Under the pieces are notes generated by a model, which made no database searches, was not told the DNA's origin, and saw only the letters and a program-made list of their open reading frames with translations. DNA of 64,000 nt from an uncultured Planctomycetota bacterium (lineage in GTDB: Bacteria; Planctomycetota; Planctomycetia; Isosphaerales; Isosphaeraceae). Shown one piece after another: positions 4,925 through 59,672 of this stretch; within the stretch, counting starts at the first letter, position 1, and each line of letters begins with the position of its first letter. Location of the stretch: contig CAWJTV010000038.1 of the NCBI GenBank assembly GCA_963845755.1, forward strand, positions 1-64,000, given 5' to 3'. The translations under genes were made by a program, and so were the position numbers.

Positions 4925-5042
4925 CGTTCCGGGGGAGGCCGGCCTGTTCGAGCGCGGCCAGGTGATCGAACGCACGTTGCTGGTCGGCCGGGTTACCCTC
5001 CACGGCGTAGATCACGATCATCGTGTCCAGGTCGTACGGCAC
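4925..5042 (-). pseudogene. PIN-domain (VapC-like) toxin, first ~37 codons only
   Basis: DLDTMIVIYAVEGNPADQQRAFDHLAALEQAG matches the PIN N-terminal LDT..(I/V)Y motif; abuts the antitoxin stop codon. Confidence 0.6.
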
Positions 5043-5348
5043 TCACGGTCCCCCCGACGCGGCCCCACGGCGCGCGGCCTCCAGTTCCCGATCCCGCTCG
5101 ACGTCCTCGTCCATCCGCGCGTCGTCCTCGGCGGCAGGTCTTCCGCCGACCGGCTGGGGGAAACCACGGGCGCGTTGCTCGGCTGCGATCTCCCGGATGA
5201 CATCCGACAGGCCACGCCGTGGACCAACCGGCGCGGCGACACGGATCGTGACTTGCACGGGGCCGGGCGGCACCCGCGGCTGTTGTGTGAGTCGTAGCTG
5301 ACCGCTCGAATCCAGCGTGCCTTCGATCGTCTCCTTGATGACATTCAT
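5043..5348 (-). CDS. Putative antitoxin of the PIN fragment
   Basis: MNVIKETIEGTLDSSGQLRL....VPPGPVQVTIR; planctomycete-type small protein directly upstream of the PIN gene. Confidence 0.55.
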   Translation of the reverse strand: MNVIKETIEGTLDSSGQLRLTQQPRVPPGPVQVTIRVAAPVGPRRGLSDVIREIAAEQRARGFPQPVGGRPAAEDDARMDEDVERDRELEAARRGAASGGP

Positions 5349-49859: not shown

Positions 49860-50037
49860 AAGGGACTCAGCCGGTTACCTGTCACGGCTCTGACAGGACA
49901 GGCTCATGAACTCCGGCACAAGACGAACCGCGGCAGCCGCCTACCCGACCGTTACTTACCTCTACCCGGCGACCGGGAATCGACGATTGCATGCACTTGC
50001 CAACCGGCAGGCTGTGGGACAAACCACCGAATCCGCC

Positions 50038-50133
50038 CTGCATCAAGCCGTGGGGCAAATACCCTGGGGTCACAACCTCGTCCTGGTCGAGCCGCTCAAG
50101 GCTCTCCGTGAGCGGCGCGCCGAGTTGGCTTAA
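50038..50133 (+). pseudogene. DUF1016/YhcG N-terminal remnant
   Basis: LHQAVGQIPWGHNLVLV signature only. Confidence 0.6.
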
Positions 50134-50188
50134 CCGCGGCGATGGCAAGCGAGGGAGCGCCAGGATCATGAAGCGTTTTGAGCACACC

Positions 50189-50272
50189 CGGCCGACCGCA
50201 GGTCTCCAGTTCCCACACCCGTCAGGAGACCTTCGGTCCGGCTTACGGCGGGGTCAGGAGACCCGCGCCGAA
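50189..50272. repeat. REP-like inverted repeat (GACCGCAGGTCTCC ... GGAGACCTTCGGTC)
   Basis: Imperfect inverted pair 50189-50207 / 50225-50242 followed by ggcggggtcaggagacccgcgcc. Confidence 0.65.
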
Positions 50273-50407
50273 CGGAATTCCAGAAGTTATTCCCATCCCG
50301 TTCCCAGGCACATCAGGACGATCTGCTCGGATTCCGGAAAAAGTTGTATCGGAACACCGGGGTCCGTGCATCAAATAGGAGATTCTCAACGCGCGGGGGG
50401 ATCTGAT

Positions 50408-52360
50408 ATGAGGTTACACCGGTTCGTCGGTCCGGACCTGGGTCGGATCTTCCGGGGAGAGACGGTCTCCGGACTTTCGGAGTGGCAACTGCTGGAGCGT
50501 TACCTGGAGCGGCGTGACGAGGCGGCGTTCGAGGCCCTGGTCAGCCGTCACGGGCCGATGGTCCTGGGGGTCTGCCGGCGGATGCTCAGAGACACGGCGG
50601 ACGTCGAGGATGCATTCCAGGCGACGTTCCTGGTCCTGGTGCGTCGTGCGCGGCAACTCGGGCCTCGGGATGCGATCGGCCCGTGGCTGTACGGCGTCGC
50701 CGCCCGGGTGGCCTTGCGGGCACGGTCGCAGTTGGCTCGTCAACGCCGTCATGAGCCGGTCGCCCTGGAATATCCGGCCGCCGCGCCGGTCGGCGGGTGG
50801 ATCGATCCCGACCTGGGCGACGTGCTCGACCAGGAATTGAGCCGGCTCCCGTCCAAGTATCGATCGCCGCTGGTCCTCTGCTACCTGGAGGGCCGGACGC
50901 ACGAAGAGGCCGCGCGGGAGCTGAACTGGCCGGTCGGCACGGTCAAGGGCCGGTTGGCCCGGGCGCGGGACCTCCTGCGGTCGCGGCTGACTCGCCGCGG
51001 CCTGGCGCCGACCGCAGGCGTCCTGGCCACGCTCGCGACGTCTGATGCGACGGCCGTGCTCGAACGTCCCGTGATCGAACGAACCGTCAGCGCGTCACTG
51101 AAATTCGCTTCGGGGCAGTCCCTTGCCCAGGTCGTATCGACCTCGATCACCTCACTCGTCGAAGGAGCCTTGGCCGCCATGATCCTCAATCAACTGAAGT
51201 GGGCCGGTCTTTCGATCCTCGTTGCCGGACTCGCATTGACCTCGGCCGGGGTGATGGCCCGGCAGGAGGCCAAGTCGAAAGCCGATCCGCCGTCGACCGC
51301 GGTGAAGGCTGAATTCAAGGCGGCTTTGTCGGACTTCGAGAAAGCCGCACGGAAATCCGACGAGAATCCGCCTGCGGCAAAGAATGCGCCCACGTTCGAT
51401 CCCCGCGAGGAACTGGTCCAGGCTGCGCGGTCGGCGTATCGAGCCACCTGGGAAGCCTACCGCGCCGGGCACGCCTCCGCCGAGCAGGTCGATCATGCCT
51501 CGCAGAAGTGGATGGAAGCCCAGGACAAGGTGCCGAGCAACTCCGAAGCCCAGGTCGCCGCCGCCGATGCCCACCTCGAGCGGATGCGCGAGCTCCTGCG
51601 AGTCCAGGCCGACCGGCCCGGATCTCCATCCAAACCCGCCGAACTGGCTCGGATCAAAGGCTATGTCGCCGAGGCGCGCTTCCTCGTGGCCCAGGCCAAG
51701 ACCCGGCCGACTTTGGCGGACGTCCCGAGCGCAGGCGGATCGGGCGAAGGCGAGGGCTGGGGCAAGGACGCGAAGTCGCGGCAGGTCCTCGCCAAGCTCG
51801 AGGAACCGATCTCGATGTCGTTCGCCGCGGAGACGCCGCTCGACGACGTACTGAAGTACATCAAGCAGGCGACGACCACGCCAACTTACGCCGGAATCCC
51901 GATCTACGTCGATCCCATCGGCATGCAAGAAGCGGAACGATCGCTCAACTCGACCGTCCAGTTGGACCTGGAAGGGATTCCCCTGCGACGGACCCTGCAA
52001 TTGCTCCTCACCCAACTGGGGCTGGTGTACTTCGTGGACGACGGGATGCTCGTAATCACCTCGGCGGATTCGGAACAAAGGGGGTTACCGCCTTCGATGC
52101 TGAAGCAATCTCCCATCCTGGCAAGGGCCGCGAAAGCCGAGCGTGGCGAGCTCACAAAGGCCGAGATGGAGGAATTGATCGAGGATTTCAAACTGCGCGA
52201 GACCGTATTGAGCTACGCCGCGGGGAAAGGGATATCCACGCATGAAGAGGGAGCAAAACGGGATCGCGAACCGATGAACCAGGTTGTCAAGGAGTTACGC
52301 GAGCTGGTCGAGCAGTTGAAGGCCGAGCGGCAGGCGAAGAAGGAGTCGGGGGCGAAATGA
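50408..52360 (+). CDS. ECF sigma-70 factor with TM and long C-terminal extension (STN-like)
   Basis: [82 protein letters not shown]. Confidence 0.93.
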
Positions 52361-52670: not shown

Positions 52671-55600
52671 TCACTTCTCCGGCTGTAATTCCCGCCCGGC
52701 CAGGAGTGCCTCGGCCTCCTTCAGGAGCCTTTGTGCTTCTTCATCTCTGGCCGAATTCGGCTTCTGCATCGTCTCGCGTAATCGATTCAGGCTCGCCTGA
52801 GCTCGGTCCTTCTCACCCATCTGGTACCGGGCCATCGCCAGAAAGGCCAGGTCCGCCGGAGCGTGACCCCCTTGATCCGCCTGGTTGAGTTCGTCCGCGC
52901 GCGTCAGCGTGGCCAGGGCCTCCTGGTACTTCCCCAGGCGGTACTGGGCCATCCCCAGAGTGGTATGGTAGGAACCCTCAAACGGAATGAGGCGGCAGGC
53001 GATTTCCGCCTGATGAACCGCCCGGCGGTACGCGGCGGCTCCAGCGCCCGGACGGGAGGCGACCGCCCGACTGGCCCGGTCAAGGTAGCGCGGGGATTCC
53101 CCGAATCGCTCCGCCAGGGCCAGGGCCTCTTGCCGTACAGGTTCGCTAAGGACAGGATCGGCGCGGAGGTGTGCGAGGATCTCAGACCGGAACAGAGGCT
53201 TGTAGATGAGAGACTTCACCGCTTTCTCGGCCTCCTGACGGACGCGGTTTCGCCAAAACGGCTCGACCAGGGTGAGAGCTTGCTGCCGCACGGCGTCGCT
53301 GACGGCGTAGTCTCTGAGCCGGGCCGACACCGCCTCCGGGGCCGGCGATTGGGCGAACAGGAACCTGACCAGGCTTGCCGCCTGCCGCTGTTCGGCAAGT
53401 TCCGTGTCGAGGGGGGACCCTTCCCAGATCGTCACGCCCTCGTCTCCACTGACCGCGAGGCGCCGGCCACCGCGATCGAACGCCACACGGTGCAACTGGG
53501 CCGGCACCCGCGCAGGGTAAGGATTTCCTGTCCGTTGAGGGCGTCCCAGAGCTTCACTTCACCGGAGAAATGCCCTCCCTTGCTCACCCCGCCCGCGGCG
53601 GTGACAAGCCGCCGGTCGTCAGGACTGTACGCCACCCCAAGCACGGCGCTCGTATGTCCGCGGAGAGTAAGGAACGTCTCTCCGGTGACCGCGTCCCAGA
53701 CCTTGACCGACCCGTCTACACTCGCGGCGGCGAGCCGCGAGCCGTCGGGACTGTACGCGATGCGTGTGACAGATCCCTCGAGGCCGGACAGCGTGAGGAT
53801 CTCCTGTCCCGTGGCCGCGTTCCAGACACGCACGGTCCGGCCCGCACTCGTGGCCAGGCGCTCACCGCCGGGGCGATAGGTCACGTGGGCGAACCCGGGG
53901 TCTCTGCCAGGCTCGGTTCGCCCGGGCCGTGTCAAGACCGTCTGCCCCGTCCTCATGTCCCAAATCATGACCTCGCCGGGAACGAGCCGTCCTCCCCCCG
54001 CCAACTCGCGGCTAATGGAAGCGAGACGCTGACCGTCGGGACTAAAGGCCACAGCGTGAATGGAAGCGGTGTGTCCTCGTAAACAGAAGATTTCGACGCC
54101 GTTCGTCGCATCCCAGACACGTACAGTCCGATCCTCTCCGGCGGAAGCGAGCCGCCGGCCGTCGGGACTGTACGCCACTCCCAGAACGGCACGGCAATGC
54201 CCGGTCAGTGTGAAGACCTCCAGCCCCGTGGTTGTATCCAGGATACAAACCGTGTTATCCGTGCCGACCACGGCCAACTTCCGGCCGTCCGGGTCAAACG
54301 TCATATCCTCTATGCGGCCGACGGCCGCGCTCAAAGTGACGGCGTCCATCGCCGCCGTCGCATCCCAGAGCTTCACCGTGCCGTCCCCACTCCCAGAGGC
54401 CAGGCGCCAACCGTCGGGGCTAAACGCCACACTCGCGACGCCGTCCTTGTGGCCGCGCAGGACGGCGGCTTCTTGCCCGGTGGTCACGTCCCAGACCGTC
54501 ACGGAATCGTTCGCAGCCGCAGCCGCGAGTCGCCGCCCGTCCGGGCTAAACGCCAGGCCCACAACTCCACCCACCTGTTGAAAGGCCAGGGTTTCTCTCC
54601 CCGTGTCCGCGTCCCAGACCTTCACCACCCCATCGTTGCTGCTCGAGGCGAGGCGCCGGCCGTCGGGGCTGTACACCACGCTGTTGACCAAGTACGGGTG
54701 CTTGCCCAGGCGGAAAAGGTCTTTTCCCGTGGCGGCATCGCAGACACGAATCGTAGGACCGTCCGCAAAGGCGAGTCGCCGCCGCGGCTCCGCCGCGGCG
54801 GGGCTGAAGGCCACGGCGATGGAGGCAGTCGGCACGGCCGCAGCCTCGTTCCCCGGAATGCACAGCAGTTGCTTCCCACCGGCCGCGTCCCAGACTTTCA
54901 CTTCGCAGGGTAAGACCGAACCCGTGGGAGCAACTCCCCTGCCGAAGGAGGCGAGCTGCCGGCCGTCCGGGCTGAACGCCAGGCCCCAGACCGGAGTGGC
55001 GTGCGCGGGCAGGCCAAGAAGCTCGCGTCCGTTGGCCGTGTCCCATAGCTTGATCTCGCCCGGAGTGAACACTCCCCCATTCGCGGAGGCCAGCCGCCGG
55101 CCGTCCGGACTGAAGGCCAAGCAAGATACGAAGTCCTTGTGCCCGCGCAGGCAAAAGCGCTCCCTTCCCGAGGCCACGTCCCAGACCTTGACCTCCCCTG
55201 GTTGGCCATAATTGCCGGCGGCGGACGCGAGCAGTCTACCGTCCGGACTGAAGGCCACGCAGCGGACGGGAGCCGTGTTGCCGAGCAAGGTGCGCATGTC
55301 GAGCCGGCACAGGCGCTGCAAGTGGTACCACTCGAAGCTTCGCAGGTCCGGCGCACCGGGTTCGTGCGGTTTGAGGACGTCGAGCCGCCGCTCGAGCGAA
55401 GCGAGTTCGCCCTCCTGCCAGTCCTTCTGGGCCAGGGTACTTTCCGCGGCGTACCAGCGTCGGTCGCTACGCGCTTTTTCGGTCTCCAACCTCTGGGCGT
55501 AGGCGAGCGTGTCTTGCTCCCGGTTGCTGGCCTGGATCGCGTAATGCGACGTGCCGGCCATGCCCAGCAGCAGCGAGGCCGCCACCGCGCCGAGTAGGAG

Positions 55601-56842
55601 TGCCACGGCCGGGTTGCGCCGGCACCAGCGCCACGCTCGCTCGGGGCCGGAGATGGGCCGGGCCACGATCGGCTCGCCGGCGCGGAACCGGCGGAGGTCC
55701 TCGGCCATCGCCGCGACATCGGGGTATCGCCGAGCCGCGTCCTTTTGCAGCGCCTTCAGGCAGATCGTCTCCAGGTCGCGGGGCATGCGGGGAATGAGCT
55801 GTGACGGAGCGACCGGCTCGGCGGTCCGGATCAGGTCGAGGGTGTCCAGGATGGACGACCCGCGGAACGGTGGCCGGCCGGTGAGCATCTCGTAGAGGGT
55901 GGTGCCCAGCGCGTACTGGTCGGCGGCGGGGCCAGCCTTCTCGGCGCCGGTGGTCTGCTCAGGCGCCATGTAGCTCGGCGAGCCGAGGATCGACCCGGTA
56001 CCGGTCTGGCCCGAGTCGGCCTCGAGCCGCTTGACCAGGCCGAAGTCGGCGATCTTTGGCGTCGTGTCGGCAGCGAGGAGGACGTTCGCCGGCTTGATGT
56101 CGCGGTGGACGATCCCACGGCGGTGGGCCACGTCCATGGCCCGGGCCAACGTCTCGATGATCCGCGCCGCGTCCTCGATCGGCTGCGGTTTGCCGGCGAT
56201 CCGCTGCGCCAGGCTGCCTCCCTCGAGAAACTCCAGCGAGAAATAAGGCAGGCCGTCGTGCTCGCCGATCTCGAAGATCTTGATGATGTTGGGGTGGTCA
56301 ATCGCGGCGACGGCGCGGGCCTCGGCCTCGAAGCGAGCCAGGTCGTCCGGTTGTGCACCGGCGCCGGCCTTGATCATCTTCAGCGCGACCAGGCGCTGGA
56401 GCCGGAGGTGCCGCGCCTTGTACACGATCCCCATGCCGCCGGCGCCCAGCACTCCCAGGATCTCGTAGCCGGTGATCCGGGGCCGTTTGTCGCCCTCGCG
56501 GCCGACGGTCGATCGGGACGCCTCCTCCGTATTCGCCGCCGCGACACCAGGCGAGTGCACGAAGCCCTCGGTGGCATCGGGGTCGTAGTCGGCCGTCGCA
56601 TCGCGGTCCGGTGCGGTCGGGGCGTCGGGATCCCGGTCGGCGGTGGCATCACGGTCGAAGTCCGTGATCGCGCCGCGGTCGAGGTCCGTGATCGCGCCGC
56701 GGTCGAAGTCGGTGGCATTCGGATTCGAGACCTCGGCATCGGGCTTGTAGTCAGCCGTCGCGTCGCGGTCGAGGTTGGTGACCGCGTCGCGGTCGAGATC
56801 CGCGGCATTCGGATTCGAGGCCTCGTCTGGGAGACGTGCCAT
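52671..56842 (-). CDS. Hanks-type Ser/Thr kinase - TM - WD40 repeats - TPR, frameshifted near 53505
   Basis: GAGGMGIVY, VALKMI, HRDIKPANVLL, DFG, YMAPE; TM AVALLLGAVAASLLLGMAG; many GH...FSPDG...WD repeats; TTLGMAQYRLG. Confidence 0.95.
56570..56825 (-). repeat. Coding tandem repeats (24-nt / 8-aa units) at the kinase N-terminus
   Basis: DLDRDAVT NLDRDATA...DFDRGAIT DLDRGAIT DFDRDATA; gcattcggattcgag duplicated 90 nt apart. Confidence 0.85.
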
Positions 56843-56976: not shown

Positions 56977-57222
56977 TTATAGGCCCCCGACTTTGCAACC
57001 ACAAAACCCCGTGCCCGGATCAAGGTCACATATCTGACCAGTAGCACAGCATGTGGCCGTGCCGTTGCTGCAAATGCAAGCATTGGGATAACTGGGATTC
57101 ATACAACTGATGACGGTGTGAGCGGGTTCGATGCCAGGTTCGGTGCTGCCGCGGGCGGGTCGGTGCGTTGGCCAGGAACAGCTCCCACGGACGACCGCGG
57201 GTGCTTGCACGGGAGGTTTCAT
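56977..57222 (-). CDS. Cys-rich RiPP-like precursor 1 (81 aa; leader ending GIEPA, 8-Cys core)
   Basis: AAAGGAGA RBS; leader shared with the 57351-57629 gene; downstream of the PatA-like protease. Confidence 0.85.
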   Translation of the reverse strand: MKPPVQAPAVVRGSCSWPTHRPARGSTEPGIEPAHTVISCMNPSYPNACICSNGTATCCATGQICDLDPGTGFCGCKVGGL

Positions 57223-57285
57223 GTCCGGTCTCCTTTCAAGTGGACCCGAGGGAAAAAAGGTGCGCGGGGATGGCTTAATTTAGAA

Positions 57286-57344
57286 GCTGTTTCTAAACGG
57301 GGACTGGCTCCGAGTCTTCGAGGTGCCTGTCCCCCTTTTGAAAC
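57286..57344. repeat. Palindromic REP/MITE-like element, copy 2
   Basis: Core aaacggggactggctccgagtcttcgaggtgcctgtccccctt identical to that in 4596-4656. Confidence 0.9.
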
Positions 57345-57350
57345 CGCCTT

Positions 57351-57629
57351 TTAGGGCTTGGGCTTGCAGGCACACCCGCCGGTGAGAATGGCATTACCAT
57401 CCTTAGCCGGTTCGCACCCATACTGGCAGCAATTGCAGGTACCATTAGGGCACCTGCACACCTGATAATTACTGTCAAAGTTGCACTTCCACTTATCACG
57501 TGAGGCGTTACCTACACAGACGTCGAAGTCGCTTCGGAAGGACGCAGAGACGCCATGGGCCGAAGAACGGCGGGCCGGCCAGGAGTGGCCCTCACGGAGG
57601 ATGGCTGCGGCTTGCACGGGAAGCTTCAT
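57351..57629 (-). CDS. Cys-rich RiPP-like precursor 2 (92 aa; leader ending GVSAS, 10-Cys core)
   Basis: AAGGAGA RBS before ATG 57629; MKLPVQAAAILREGHSWP leader. Confidence 0.85.
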   Translation of the reverse strand: MKLPVQAAAILREGHSWPARRSSAHGVSASFRSDFDVCVGNASRDKWKCNFDSNYQVCRCPNGTCNCCQYGCEPAKDGNAILTGGCACKPKP

Positions 57630-57679
57630 GTTCAGTCTCCTTGTGGGTTGCCCGGCGCAGTGCGCTGCCGGGGACACAT

Positions 57680-59543
57680 TCAGCGCGTGAACCAGGCCGC
57701 GCGTTCGGACCGACCGTCACTGGCACGGTGTCGCTGACGTCCACCGTAAACCGGTACACCCGGCGCACCGTCTGCACCTGCCGCTCGGGATAGAAGAAGT
57801 ACAGTTCGACATCCCAGCACTCCGAGCCGGGTCGGCAGATCGGGCTGCGGACGACGTTGACGCTCTCCAATTCCATCTTTTCCTTCAGGGCGGCTTCGTA
57901 GATTCTCTCGAAGGCAAAGGCATTGGTGGCCGCGAAATTGATGGCCCGGTCCTGCGGCGTCAGACCCAGGTTGCGCAGGCCGTGGTAAACGCGGTCGAGG
58001 AAGTTGCGGAGGCCCTCCGTGCGCTGCGCATGCGCATCGCGCTCGGGCTGGGGAGCCTCCGCCGCGGGCGCGGGGCCGGCCACTGAGTCCGTCAGGGCCG
58101 CAGTCGTCCAGCTAAACATGCCGCGCAATTCCGGCACGATGACGGGCACGACCTGCCCCGTCAGGAGCGTGGCCTTGCCGGCAACGACGCCCGGGATCGA
58201 TACACGCTCGACCCCCTCGTCCAGTTGCTCACGCAGGAACCGCCGCAGTTCCTTGTAAGCGTCGGCGGCGAACGGTCCTTGCGGCCGGACCGCGTAAATC
58301 GCCGTGCCGTCGAGAGAGAGGGTCCATTCGACGGAGGCGGCGTCCCAGGGGTGCTCGTCGAGATAGTCGAGCATCCGCCGGGGGTCGAACGCCAGGACGC
58401 GTTCCGTATGACTCGCACCGGTGACGCCGGCTATCACCTGGGCGAGGCTGTCGAGGCGGGCTTCGCTGACCAGGTCGTAGCCGAGCTGGCCGAGAGCGTA
58501 GACCAACTGCCGCGACCCGGCCTGACAACCGCAAGCGGACGGTTGGACTGCCGCGGGGCGAACCGCGTTTTCGGTCGGGCCGGGTGGGATCGGCGAGGCC
58601 GCGTCCAGGTTGTCTTGGCTTGGCGCCACCTCGCTCTGTGAGGCGGTGGAGTCGGACATGGTCAGCATACTCCGCGTGAGGATTGTTACGGCTCCATCGA
58701 CACTCAACCGTCCAGCCAGGAGGCGGCGGCAATCCGTTGTCGGCTTCTGATCACATCCGAGGGCACTGAGCAACAATGCCTCCCGGACGAACTGCGGGCT
58801 CGGCTGCCGGCCGCGTTTTCGCTGCAAACTCAGGAGCAGGGCCGCGACTCCCGAAACCACGGCCGTCGCGTAACTGGTGCCGGTACCCGCGCCGTACCTC
58901 CACCGGGTTGCGCTCCCAGTATATCCACGCCCGGCGCCAATATCCCCTGGATTCCGTAAAGAGCGCCCCAATTGCTGGACTCGAGGGGTTTCCCCTGGGC
59001 ATCCATCGCGCCCACCGCCAGCACCGAGTCGAGGGCGGCGGGGACGTGGAGGCACGCGCAACCGTCATTGCCCGCGGCGGCGACGATCAGGACGCCGCAC
59101 CGGGCGCAATCGCGGACCACGTCGGCCAGCAGCGGGTGAGCAGTGCCCGAAGGGGAAAACTGTCCGCCGCTGATGTTGACGACGTGGGCGCCCTGCTGTA
59201 CCACCTGGGAGATGGCCCGTGCGAGATCGAGTTGCGAACAGAGCTGAATCGACTGCTCACTGACGGACTGAAAAATCGGCACGAGGACGCCTCGGCAGAG
59301 CGGCGCGAGGCCCGGCACGGGCCCGTCGTGCTGGCCGAAGATCACGCTGGCGATGTGGGTACCGTGCCGGCTGGCCAGGCCGAGGTCGGCGGTCCCCGAA
59401 ACCAGGGTTTCCACCTGCGTGAGGTTCGCAGTTTTCAAACTCGGGTGGGAGCGGTCAACCGGCCCGTCCAGCACCGCGATGCAGACCGCGGGATCGCCAA
59501 GGGTCTCGGCCCAGATTTCTCGGATTCCGGAGAGGAGGCCCAT
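57680..59543 (-). CDS. patA: PatA-type cyanobactin maturation protease (S8 + PatG_D/PatG_C domains), frameshifts at ~58887 and ~57700
   Basis: IAVLDGPVD, HGTHIASVIFGQHD, SQLDLARAI, AAAGNDGCACLHVPAAL, SNWG..Y..QGILAPG, GTSYAT; then VYALGQLGYD, ERVSIPG, FLDRVY..LRNLG....RAINFAATN, SPICR..S.CWDV, VYRFTVDVSD..PVTVG. Confidence 0.92.
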
Positions 59544-59672
59544 GACGATACAACCGCAATCTGCCCACGAAGATGAACGCTAGAAGTGGTCGCACGCCTT
59601 GTGAGCCCACTCCCCTGTGTGTCACTAGGATAAGCCGCCCGCCACGCGATGACAAATGAAAAACGCATCCTG

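Follow-up and report, generated by a model that had tools for sequence, protein, structure and literature searches.

A PatA-type protease beside two cysteine-rich precursor genes in a planctomycete: evidence for a minimal peptide maturation module and hints of peptide signalling

The leader protease of the cyanobactin pathway, PatA, cuts its substrates after G(L/V)E(A/P)S (PMC10885120, in part), and KKNxxPxxxxPVxR has been described before as a motif of cyanobactin precursors (PMC3428304, in part). Precursors of the anacyclamide and piricyclamide type (PirE, AcyE-like) carry the N-terminal PxxxxPVxR and have no heterocyclase; their cores of up to 22 residues are followed by FAGD and macrocyclised by PatG (PMC3428304, in part). 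Piricyclamides can carry one disulfide, a point of likeness to the Cys-rich cores described here. Aeruginosamide, viridisamide and muscoride A are linear products of systems with a PatA-type leader protease and consist of 3-5 residues bearing azoles as well as prenyl and methyl groups (PMC4663559, in part), and the follower of muscoride is removed by the YcaO enzyme MusD (PMC10885120, in part). Two questions have long been open in this field, namely the role of the cyanobactin DUF (PMC4259220, in part) and the purpose of PatB (PMC4663559, in part). PatG-DUF showed no PatE binding by NMR, and the covered parts of that paper test neither PatA-DUF nor PatB (PMC4259220).

Here we analysed a window of 64,000 nucleotides, the whole stretch of DNA under study, from an uncultured planctomycete of the Isosphaeraceae. 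The following features are concerned:

59627..59655, minus strand: weak sigma-70-like promoter match upstream of the protease, consensus match only
57680..59543, minus strand: PatA-type S8 protease with C-terminal cyanobactin DUF (PatG_D and PatG_C), about 620 aa, by Pfam and NCBIfam
57351..57629, minus strand: precursor 1, 92 aa, leader 1-30 ending in GVSAS, predicted 62-aa core with 10 Cys
57280..57350, no strand: genome-wide intergenic repeat between the precursor genes
56977..57222, minus strand: precursor 2, 81 aa, leader 1-34 ending in GIEPA, predicted 47-aa core with 8 Cys
52671..56842, minus strand: Ser/Thr kinase, single predicted transmembrane helix and WD40 repeats, about 1390 aa, by Pfam and hydropathy

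The protease, precursor 1 and precursor 2 are three co-oriented genes in this order. The promoter match agrees with the consensus at 9/12 positions (1 found versus 0.3 expected). The intergenic repeat, which has about 75 similar places in the genome, is not part of the peptide system; in a related contig both precursor genes are joined without it. The kinase-WD40 gene 134 bp downstream of precursor 2, as well as three more PatG_C loci in the genome, were absent from the preliminary description of this locus. An ECF sigma factor with a long C-terminal extension (49991-52360, plus strand) is convergent with the kinase-WD40 gene.

The preliminary description had recognised a PatA-like S8 protease with C-terminal PatG_D and PatG_C domains, and indeed Pfam matched Peptidase_S8, PatG_D and PatG_C within 59543..57680. 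The two pieces of the window gene scored 223 and 417 bits on TIGR03895 (cut-off 421 bits), and the intact relative P0005 (620 aa, 91% identical across both pieces) reached 646.9 bits, above the cut-off, which assigns the enzyme to the PatA type. The Asp-His-Ser triad is in place: across 94 aligned rows H60 and S224 are invariant and D26 is conserved in at least 90%. The closest solved relatives are PagA/PatA structures (4h6w, E 3e-97; 4h6v), while the alignment of PatG chains starts only at query residue 43. The macrocyclase insert which PatG carries between the catalytic Asp and His is absent, the Asp-His spacing in the alignment being 34 in the window-type protease versus 84-85 in two PatG-type rows; this points to a leader protease, not a macrocyclase, and excludes membership in PatG.

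The AlphaFold2 model of P0005 (pLDDT 83, pTM 0.81) shows an S8 domain, a disordered linker (294-342) and the DUF, the architecture of PatA/PagA (4h6v, 4h6w, 3zxx; TIGR03895) joined to the cyanobactin DUF (4uvq). The latter is matched with Z 28.9 and rmsd 2.1 over 255 aligned residues, and a fold search with the full-length model returned subtilisins and 4uvq and nothing else. From the pTM of 0.81 we infer that the S8 domain and the DUF would pack together. The linker contains a conserved CxC (C338, C340), directly preceded by a cut-site-like motif in 47/94 rows. Since such a motif stands before the CxC, and PDB entry 3zxx, a PatA fragment, carries "self-cleaved" in its title, it is plausible that the protease cleaves itself and releases a DUF with an N-terminal CxC. 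When the DUF (P0005 335-620) and the precursor-2 leader were modelled as a complex, the values were 0.71, 0.21 and 0.00, which say nothing either way.

The need for a repaired protease sequence had been indicated before and could be narrowed to two frame breaks, one near 58885, directly before the catalytic GTSYA, and one near 57698-57706, in the last codons. The C-terminal break is not found in a contig with one mismatch in 151 bases, and the catalytic-site break, which is covered only by two relatives about 92% alike, is missing from both. The rpoB gene of the same assembly is likewise divided across frames, and the reading frame of the neighbouring kinase-WD40 gene breaks near 53504 (judged from a 74% identical relative), with about 280 more codons beyond. 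Given the split rpoB, the broken kinase gene and the other contigs without breaks, the two protease breaks are very probably assembly errors. A segment of rpoC also lies in another frame, and rpoB is far from rpoC (C34:79366-83015 and 567489-571586).

Both small precursor ORFs, described earlier as having strong ribosome binding sites and a shared leader, are real genes. Each has an AAGGAG-type ribosome binding site, and contigs of a public sequencing run, which may represent the source sample, match the two genes free of gaps, at 0 and 1 differences. A chance origin of the ORFs is contradicted by the 37 homologs that were found and by the core Cys kept across the aligned precursor-2 sequences: in an alignment of 29 sequences all eight are kept, seven of them invariant and one in at least 90%. 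The leader Cys of precursor 2 is not conserved in this alignment. Four short strands are predicted in the precursor-2 core (AlphaFold2, pLDDT 75-81); fold searches with this low-confidence model gave nothing usable and the ESM Atlas no usable match. In a comparison with known disulfide-rich folds such as knottin, defensin and WAP, every Pfam match of 34 peptides stayed below the cut-off.

The leader holds two motifs, a proximal one in the first 12 residues and a distal, cut-site-like one before the core. The distal motif [VILY]-x-[PA]-[SQALM] precedes the core in 60/80 non-redundant leader peptides and, as so defined, is missing from 20/80; seven PatB rows and one near-duplicate had been removed from this set beforehand. 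The cut sites predicted in the preliminary description fall in the conserved register [VIL]-x-[PA]-[SQA]; compared with the PatA consensus, GVSAS agrees at 4/5 positions and GIEPA at 3/5 plus a conservative Ile. Judged from these motifs and the PatA-type active site, the protease quite likely cleaves both precursors at the predicted sites. The same leader was seen by eye on short, Cys-free hydrophobic cores resembling amphipathic helices (L169, L177, L184, P0132), and an acidic repeat core (L167) stands behind the same leader type.

The proximal tag reads M-[RK]-L-P-x-[QL]-x-x-x-[VI]-x-R with the register P4, V10 and R12 conserved. It carries the cyanobactin PxxxxPVxR motif, without the KKN prefix, and the leader can no longer be regarded as free of cyanobactin features, since its first 12 residues are of the type present in PatB and in PatE/PirE. 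A tag matrix built from 23 planctomycete leaders and run on 1003 ATG-started ORFs of ten non-planctomycete loci ranked six PatB first, followed by Cys-rich precursors, and placed seven PatE precursors inside the top 24; NCBIfam confirmed four of these PatB and three of the PatE sequences. In the literature, mostly openly accessible texts without supplements, the tag was not found noted in PatB or in Cys-rich peptides of this kind. Since it keeps company with PatA and the DUF rather than with YcaO, its likeliest reader would be the protease or the DUF attached to it.

The protease is a PatA-type member, without a PatG insert and with a cut-site motif close to G(L/V)E(A/P)S, and the module would operate in the manner of the opening step of the cyanobactin pathway. 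The remainder of the pathway differs. Unlike PatA/PagA systems, the locus lacks PatG, PatD, PatF and PatC, its single fused protease is not accompanied by a second (G) protease, and the cores of 47-62 residues run to the stop codon. As stated previously, neither a LAELSEE-type heterocyclase site nor a C-terminal follower (AYDG, SYDG, FAGD) is present in any of the 80 non-redundant leader peptides. The PatE-family models TIGR03678 and NF042906 matched 0/28 precursors and did match three true PatE controls. With no PatG and no follower, the locus is not a member of the cyanobactin pathway, and the reading of its products as linear Cys-rich peptides is supported. It also does not belong to the YcaO-dependent azole peptides, given the lack of YcaO in the 87.9%-complete host genome and of the site in 80/80 peptides. 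The likeness to PirE/AcyE-type precursors extends to a G-L-x-P-Q-like leader end (L174); unlike these, the window precursors have no follower, four to five predicted disulfides and a linear predicted product. With PatB/AcyB/McaB (TIGR04220) the precursors share the first 12 residues and the place directly after patA, but the conserved HGANYND region is absent, and membership was rejected: only 1/28 precursors matched TIGR04220, over residues 1-12 and with 12.1 bits against a cut-off of 55. In a protease tree (FastTree, rooted on the split enzymes) cyanobactin PatA/PatG are nested among the simpler modules with weak support (0.89), which does not bear out the earlier label "cyanobactin-derived".

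PatG_C occurs in 27/121 genomes of the host family and in 5/401 of a phylum sample, the host genome counted. A Cys-rich leader peptide stands directly after the fused-type protease in 19/26 host-family genomes; among the remaining seven, one lies on 2.4-kb contigs and one holds a remnant precursor only. The co-occurrence of leader and PatA-type genes expected by the preliminary description was found: all 29/29 leader-profile matches at E<=1e-4 are in PatG_C-positive genomes, 23 of them being training rows, and none of the nine weak matches inspected in PatG_C-negative genomes is a Cys-rich ORF with a leader. Protease and precursor occur together in Nitrospira and Acidobacteriota records, and in many metagenome contigs. 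Plasmids of Acaryochloris marina and Gloeocapsa PCC 7428 carry the pair as well. In the plasmid of A. marina MBIC11017 (L248, 5002-5190) an unannotated precursor gene with 4 Cys, and in that of Gloeocapsa PCC 7428 (L249, about 4960-5205) one with 10 core Cys, follows a PatA-type gene. Both strains are cultured carriers of the module, which is hence not confined to non-cyanobacteria; the products had been called distinct from cyanobactins, which holds with no PatG and no follower, and outside cyanobacteria, which does not.

The three further PatG_C loci of the host genome (C31:175037-177430, C14:49562-52520, C36:419985-420554) are of a split type, with a stand-alone DUF, their own Cys-rich precursors and the leader MxxPG(F/L). 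The S8 gene is separate at C31 and C14; at C36 the copy adjoins a transposase-like gene and is truncated. DUF-only genes were seen beside precursors or a second protease (L231 on G070:C14, L129 on G120:C4, L049); in G070 such a gene is found with a precursor and with a kinase-WD40 gene in convergent orientation, and an S8 domain is missing. In several loci with a convergent kinase, the protease is immediately preceded by a conserved gene of about 780 codons with a VWA domain (L216 2798-5140, L218, L219, L222, L223, L224, L226). We treat this neighbour as synteny, since it is absent from the window and a search of the host genome gave no match.

The association with the kinase-WD40 gene is a hint of peptide signalling. 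Within 1 kb downstream, a kinase or WD40 match is present at 25/30 host-family precursor loci, related loci included and hence not independent, compared with 6.8% of random 1.5-kb stretches, a background taken from the host genome only; at the other five loci there is one match at 1.8 kb, none at three, and a contig edge at one. The kinase is kept at 7/8 precursor loci far from an intact protease and present at 0/5 fused-protease loci without a precursor. It occurs in two arrangements, on the same strand for the leader type of the window and convergent for a six-Cys type, and the proteases of the two fall in separate clades of the tree. The 25 linked kinases form four supported clades among unlinked paralogs, and the same peptide type adjoins kinases of two different clades. 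They are not simple orthologs: the window gene is the top match in the host genome for 2/11 other linked kinases and second to fifth for the rest. A peptide neighbour of this kind is found at 1/34 kinase-WD40 genes of the host genome. All 12/12 linked kinases examined have a hydrophobic segment after the kinase domain, and periplasmic WD40 domains have been predicted for such kinases (PMC11032199, in part). Acidic DRDAT-like repeats were seen at the N-terminus of the kinase-WD40 protein.

From this gene linkage and the predicted topology, the likeliest single role in the host family, though a tentative one, is that an exported peptide would act on the WD40 domain predicted to face outward on the neighbouring kinase. 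Against a general role count the lack of any visible export route, the 33/34 kinase-WD40 genes of the host genome that have no such peptide, and the rarity of the pair outside the host family. Equally tentatively, the same maturation might yield secreted antagonists, antimicrobials or protease inhibitors, with the kinase as a historical neighbour or a means of self-protection. Outside the host family a kinase-WD40 gene was found at 1/26 peptide loci, many of them short, and 24/26 module loci examined there have no kinase at all, as would be expected of antagonists. The Cys-free, amphipathic-looking cores would also fit, as would weak PDB matches, none of them significant: for six-Cys cores, bromelain inhibitor VI (E 0.08) and a squash trypsin inhibitor (E 0.29); for cores of precursor 2, a fungal antifungal protein (E 0.25). 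Against the antagonist reading stand a kinase that is kept where the precursor is far from the protease, is missing where a protease has no precursor, and comes from four clades, and a core 2 that is acidic (pI 5.2) and well conserved.

The fate of the cysteines bears on what kind of product is released, for which the preliminary description had offered a "disulfide-knotted or metal-binding" peptide. Among the 70 peptides with four or more Cys, 59 have even counts, a figure that includes non-independent relatives, one frameshifted ORF and two peptides with leader Cys counted; among the 37 direct precursor homologs, core counts are even in 35. Core Cys are absent from 7/80 leader peptides. In the nine precursor-1 relatives one Cys pair is jointly present in seven and jointly absent in two, and both members of a second pair found in the precursor-1 family are lacking in the precursor-2 family. 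These mostly even counts, together with pairs gained and lost together, favour disulfide bonding over metal binding, so that the first half of the earlier alternative gains weight and the second loses it; the cores are probably disulfide-bonded. That they instead remain in reduced form inside the cytoplasm, chelating or sensing metal in the manner of metallothioneins, is unlikely. Neither precursor has a signal peptide and no transporter was found among 23 neighbour ORFs scanned (one locus has a thiol-disulfide oxidoreductase-like gene), the cores show CxC and CC motifs, and the linker CxC with its preceding cut-site-like motif and the "self-cleaved" PatA fragment would suit such a role, but the pairing of the Cys, the long spacing between them and the lack of His in core 1 speak against it.

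It is very improbable that the locus is what is left of a cyanobactin pathway, with YcaO and PatG supplied in trans from another place, or a cluster of pseudogenes in decay: an incomplete genome, two frame breaks, decayed copies at L122, L128 and L116 and a higher YcaO frequency in PatG_C-positive (14/27) than in other host-family genomes (15/94), which we suspect to be a genome-size effect, stand against the missing site and follower in 80/80 peptides, the many intact relatives of about 620 aa, the contig without the C-terminal break, the similarly split rpoB, and the absence of YcaO from the host genome as far as it is complete, from 13/27 PatG_C-positive genomes (five of these at least 90% complete) and from within 300 kb of any protease locus in the PatG_C-positive host-family genomes. 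The other S8-DUF sets of the host are split and have their own precursors. The earlier view of a system with no need of YcaO or PatG is supported.

On balance, we regard the locus as a minimal PatA-type maturation module that probably yields linear disulfide mini-proteins. A cytoplasmic PatA-type subtilisin would take precursors starting with the conserved 12-residue tag and cut after the second motif, GVSAS or GIEPA, to give linear cores of 62 and 47 residues, which would fold as small beta-rich domains with five and four disulfides; neither a heterocyclase nor a macrocyclase would be involved. A wider reading, in which the Cys peptides are ligands of dedicated WD40 kinases, the tag is the signal for PatA or its DUF, PatB serves PatA as substrate or regulator, and cyanobactins arose from the module, is doubtful as a whole.

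In plants, RALF with FERONIA and EPF with ERECTA are subtilase-processed Cys-rich peptides with receptor-like kinases, the plant peptides having signal peptides. What the planctomycete locus shares with them is logic only, that is, subtilisin-type maturation, a putative disulfide peptide and a single-pass Ser/Thr kinase, and no homology is claimed; unlike in the plant systems, WD40 forms the predicted outer domain, and the pairing of peptide and kinase is putative. A description of the module was not found in the literature, mostly openly accessible texts without supplements, and the putative peptide-signalling system seems to be undescribed.

In the module, the cyanobactin pathway is pared down to a single enzyme and a single leader, by which the questions of the DUF's role and of PatB's purpose become testable through the shared tag. 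The cores constitute a large natural library of probable disulfide mini-proteins without a curated family. Planctomycetes have many membrane Ser/Thr kinases with WD40 outer domains, the inputs of which are largely unknown (PMC11032199, in part), and the linkage of peptide and kinase genes names candidate ligand-receptor pairs; if true, this pairing would be a bacterial counterpart, in logic, of plant signalling by Cys-rich peptides and receptor kinases.
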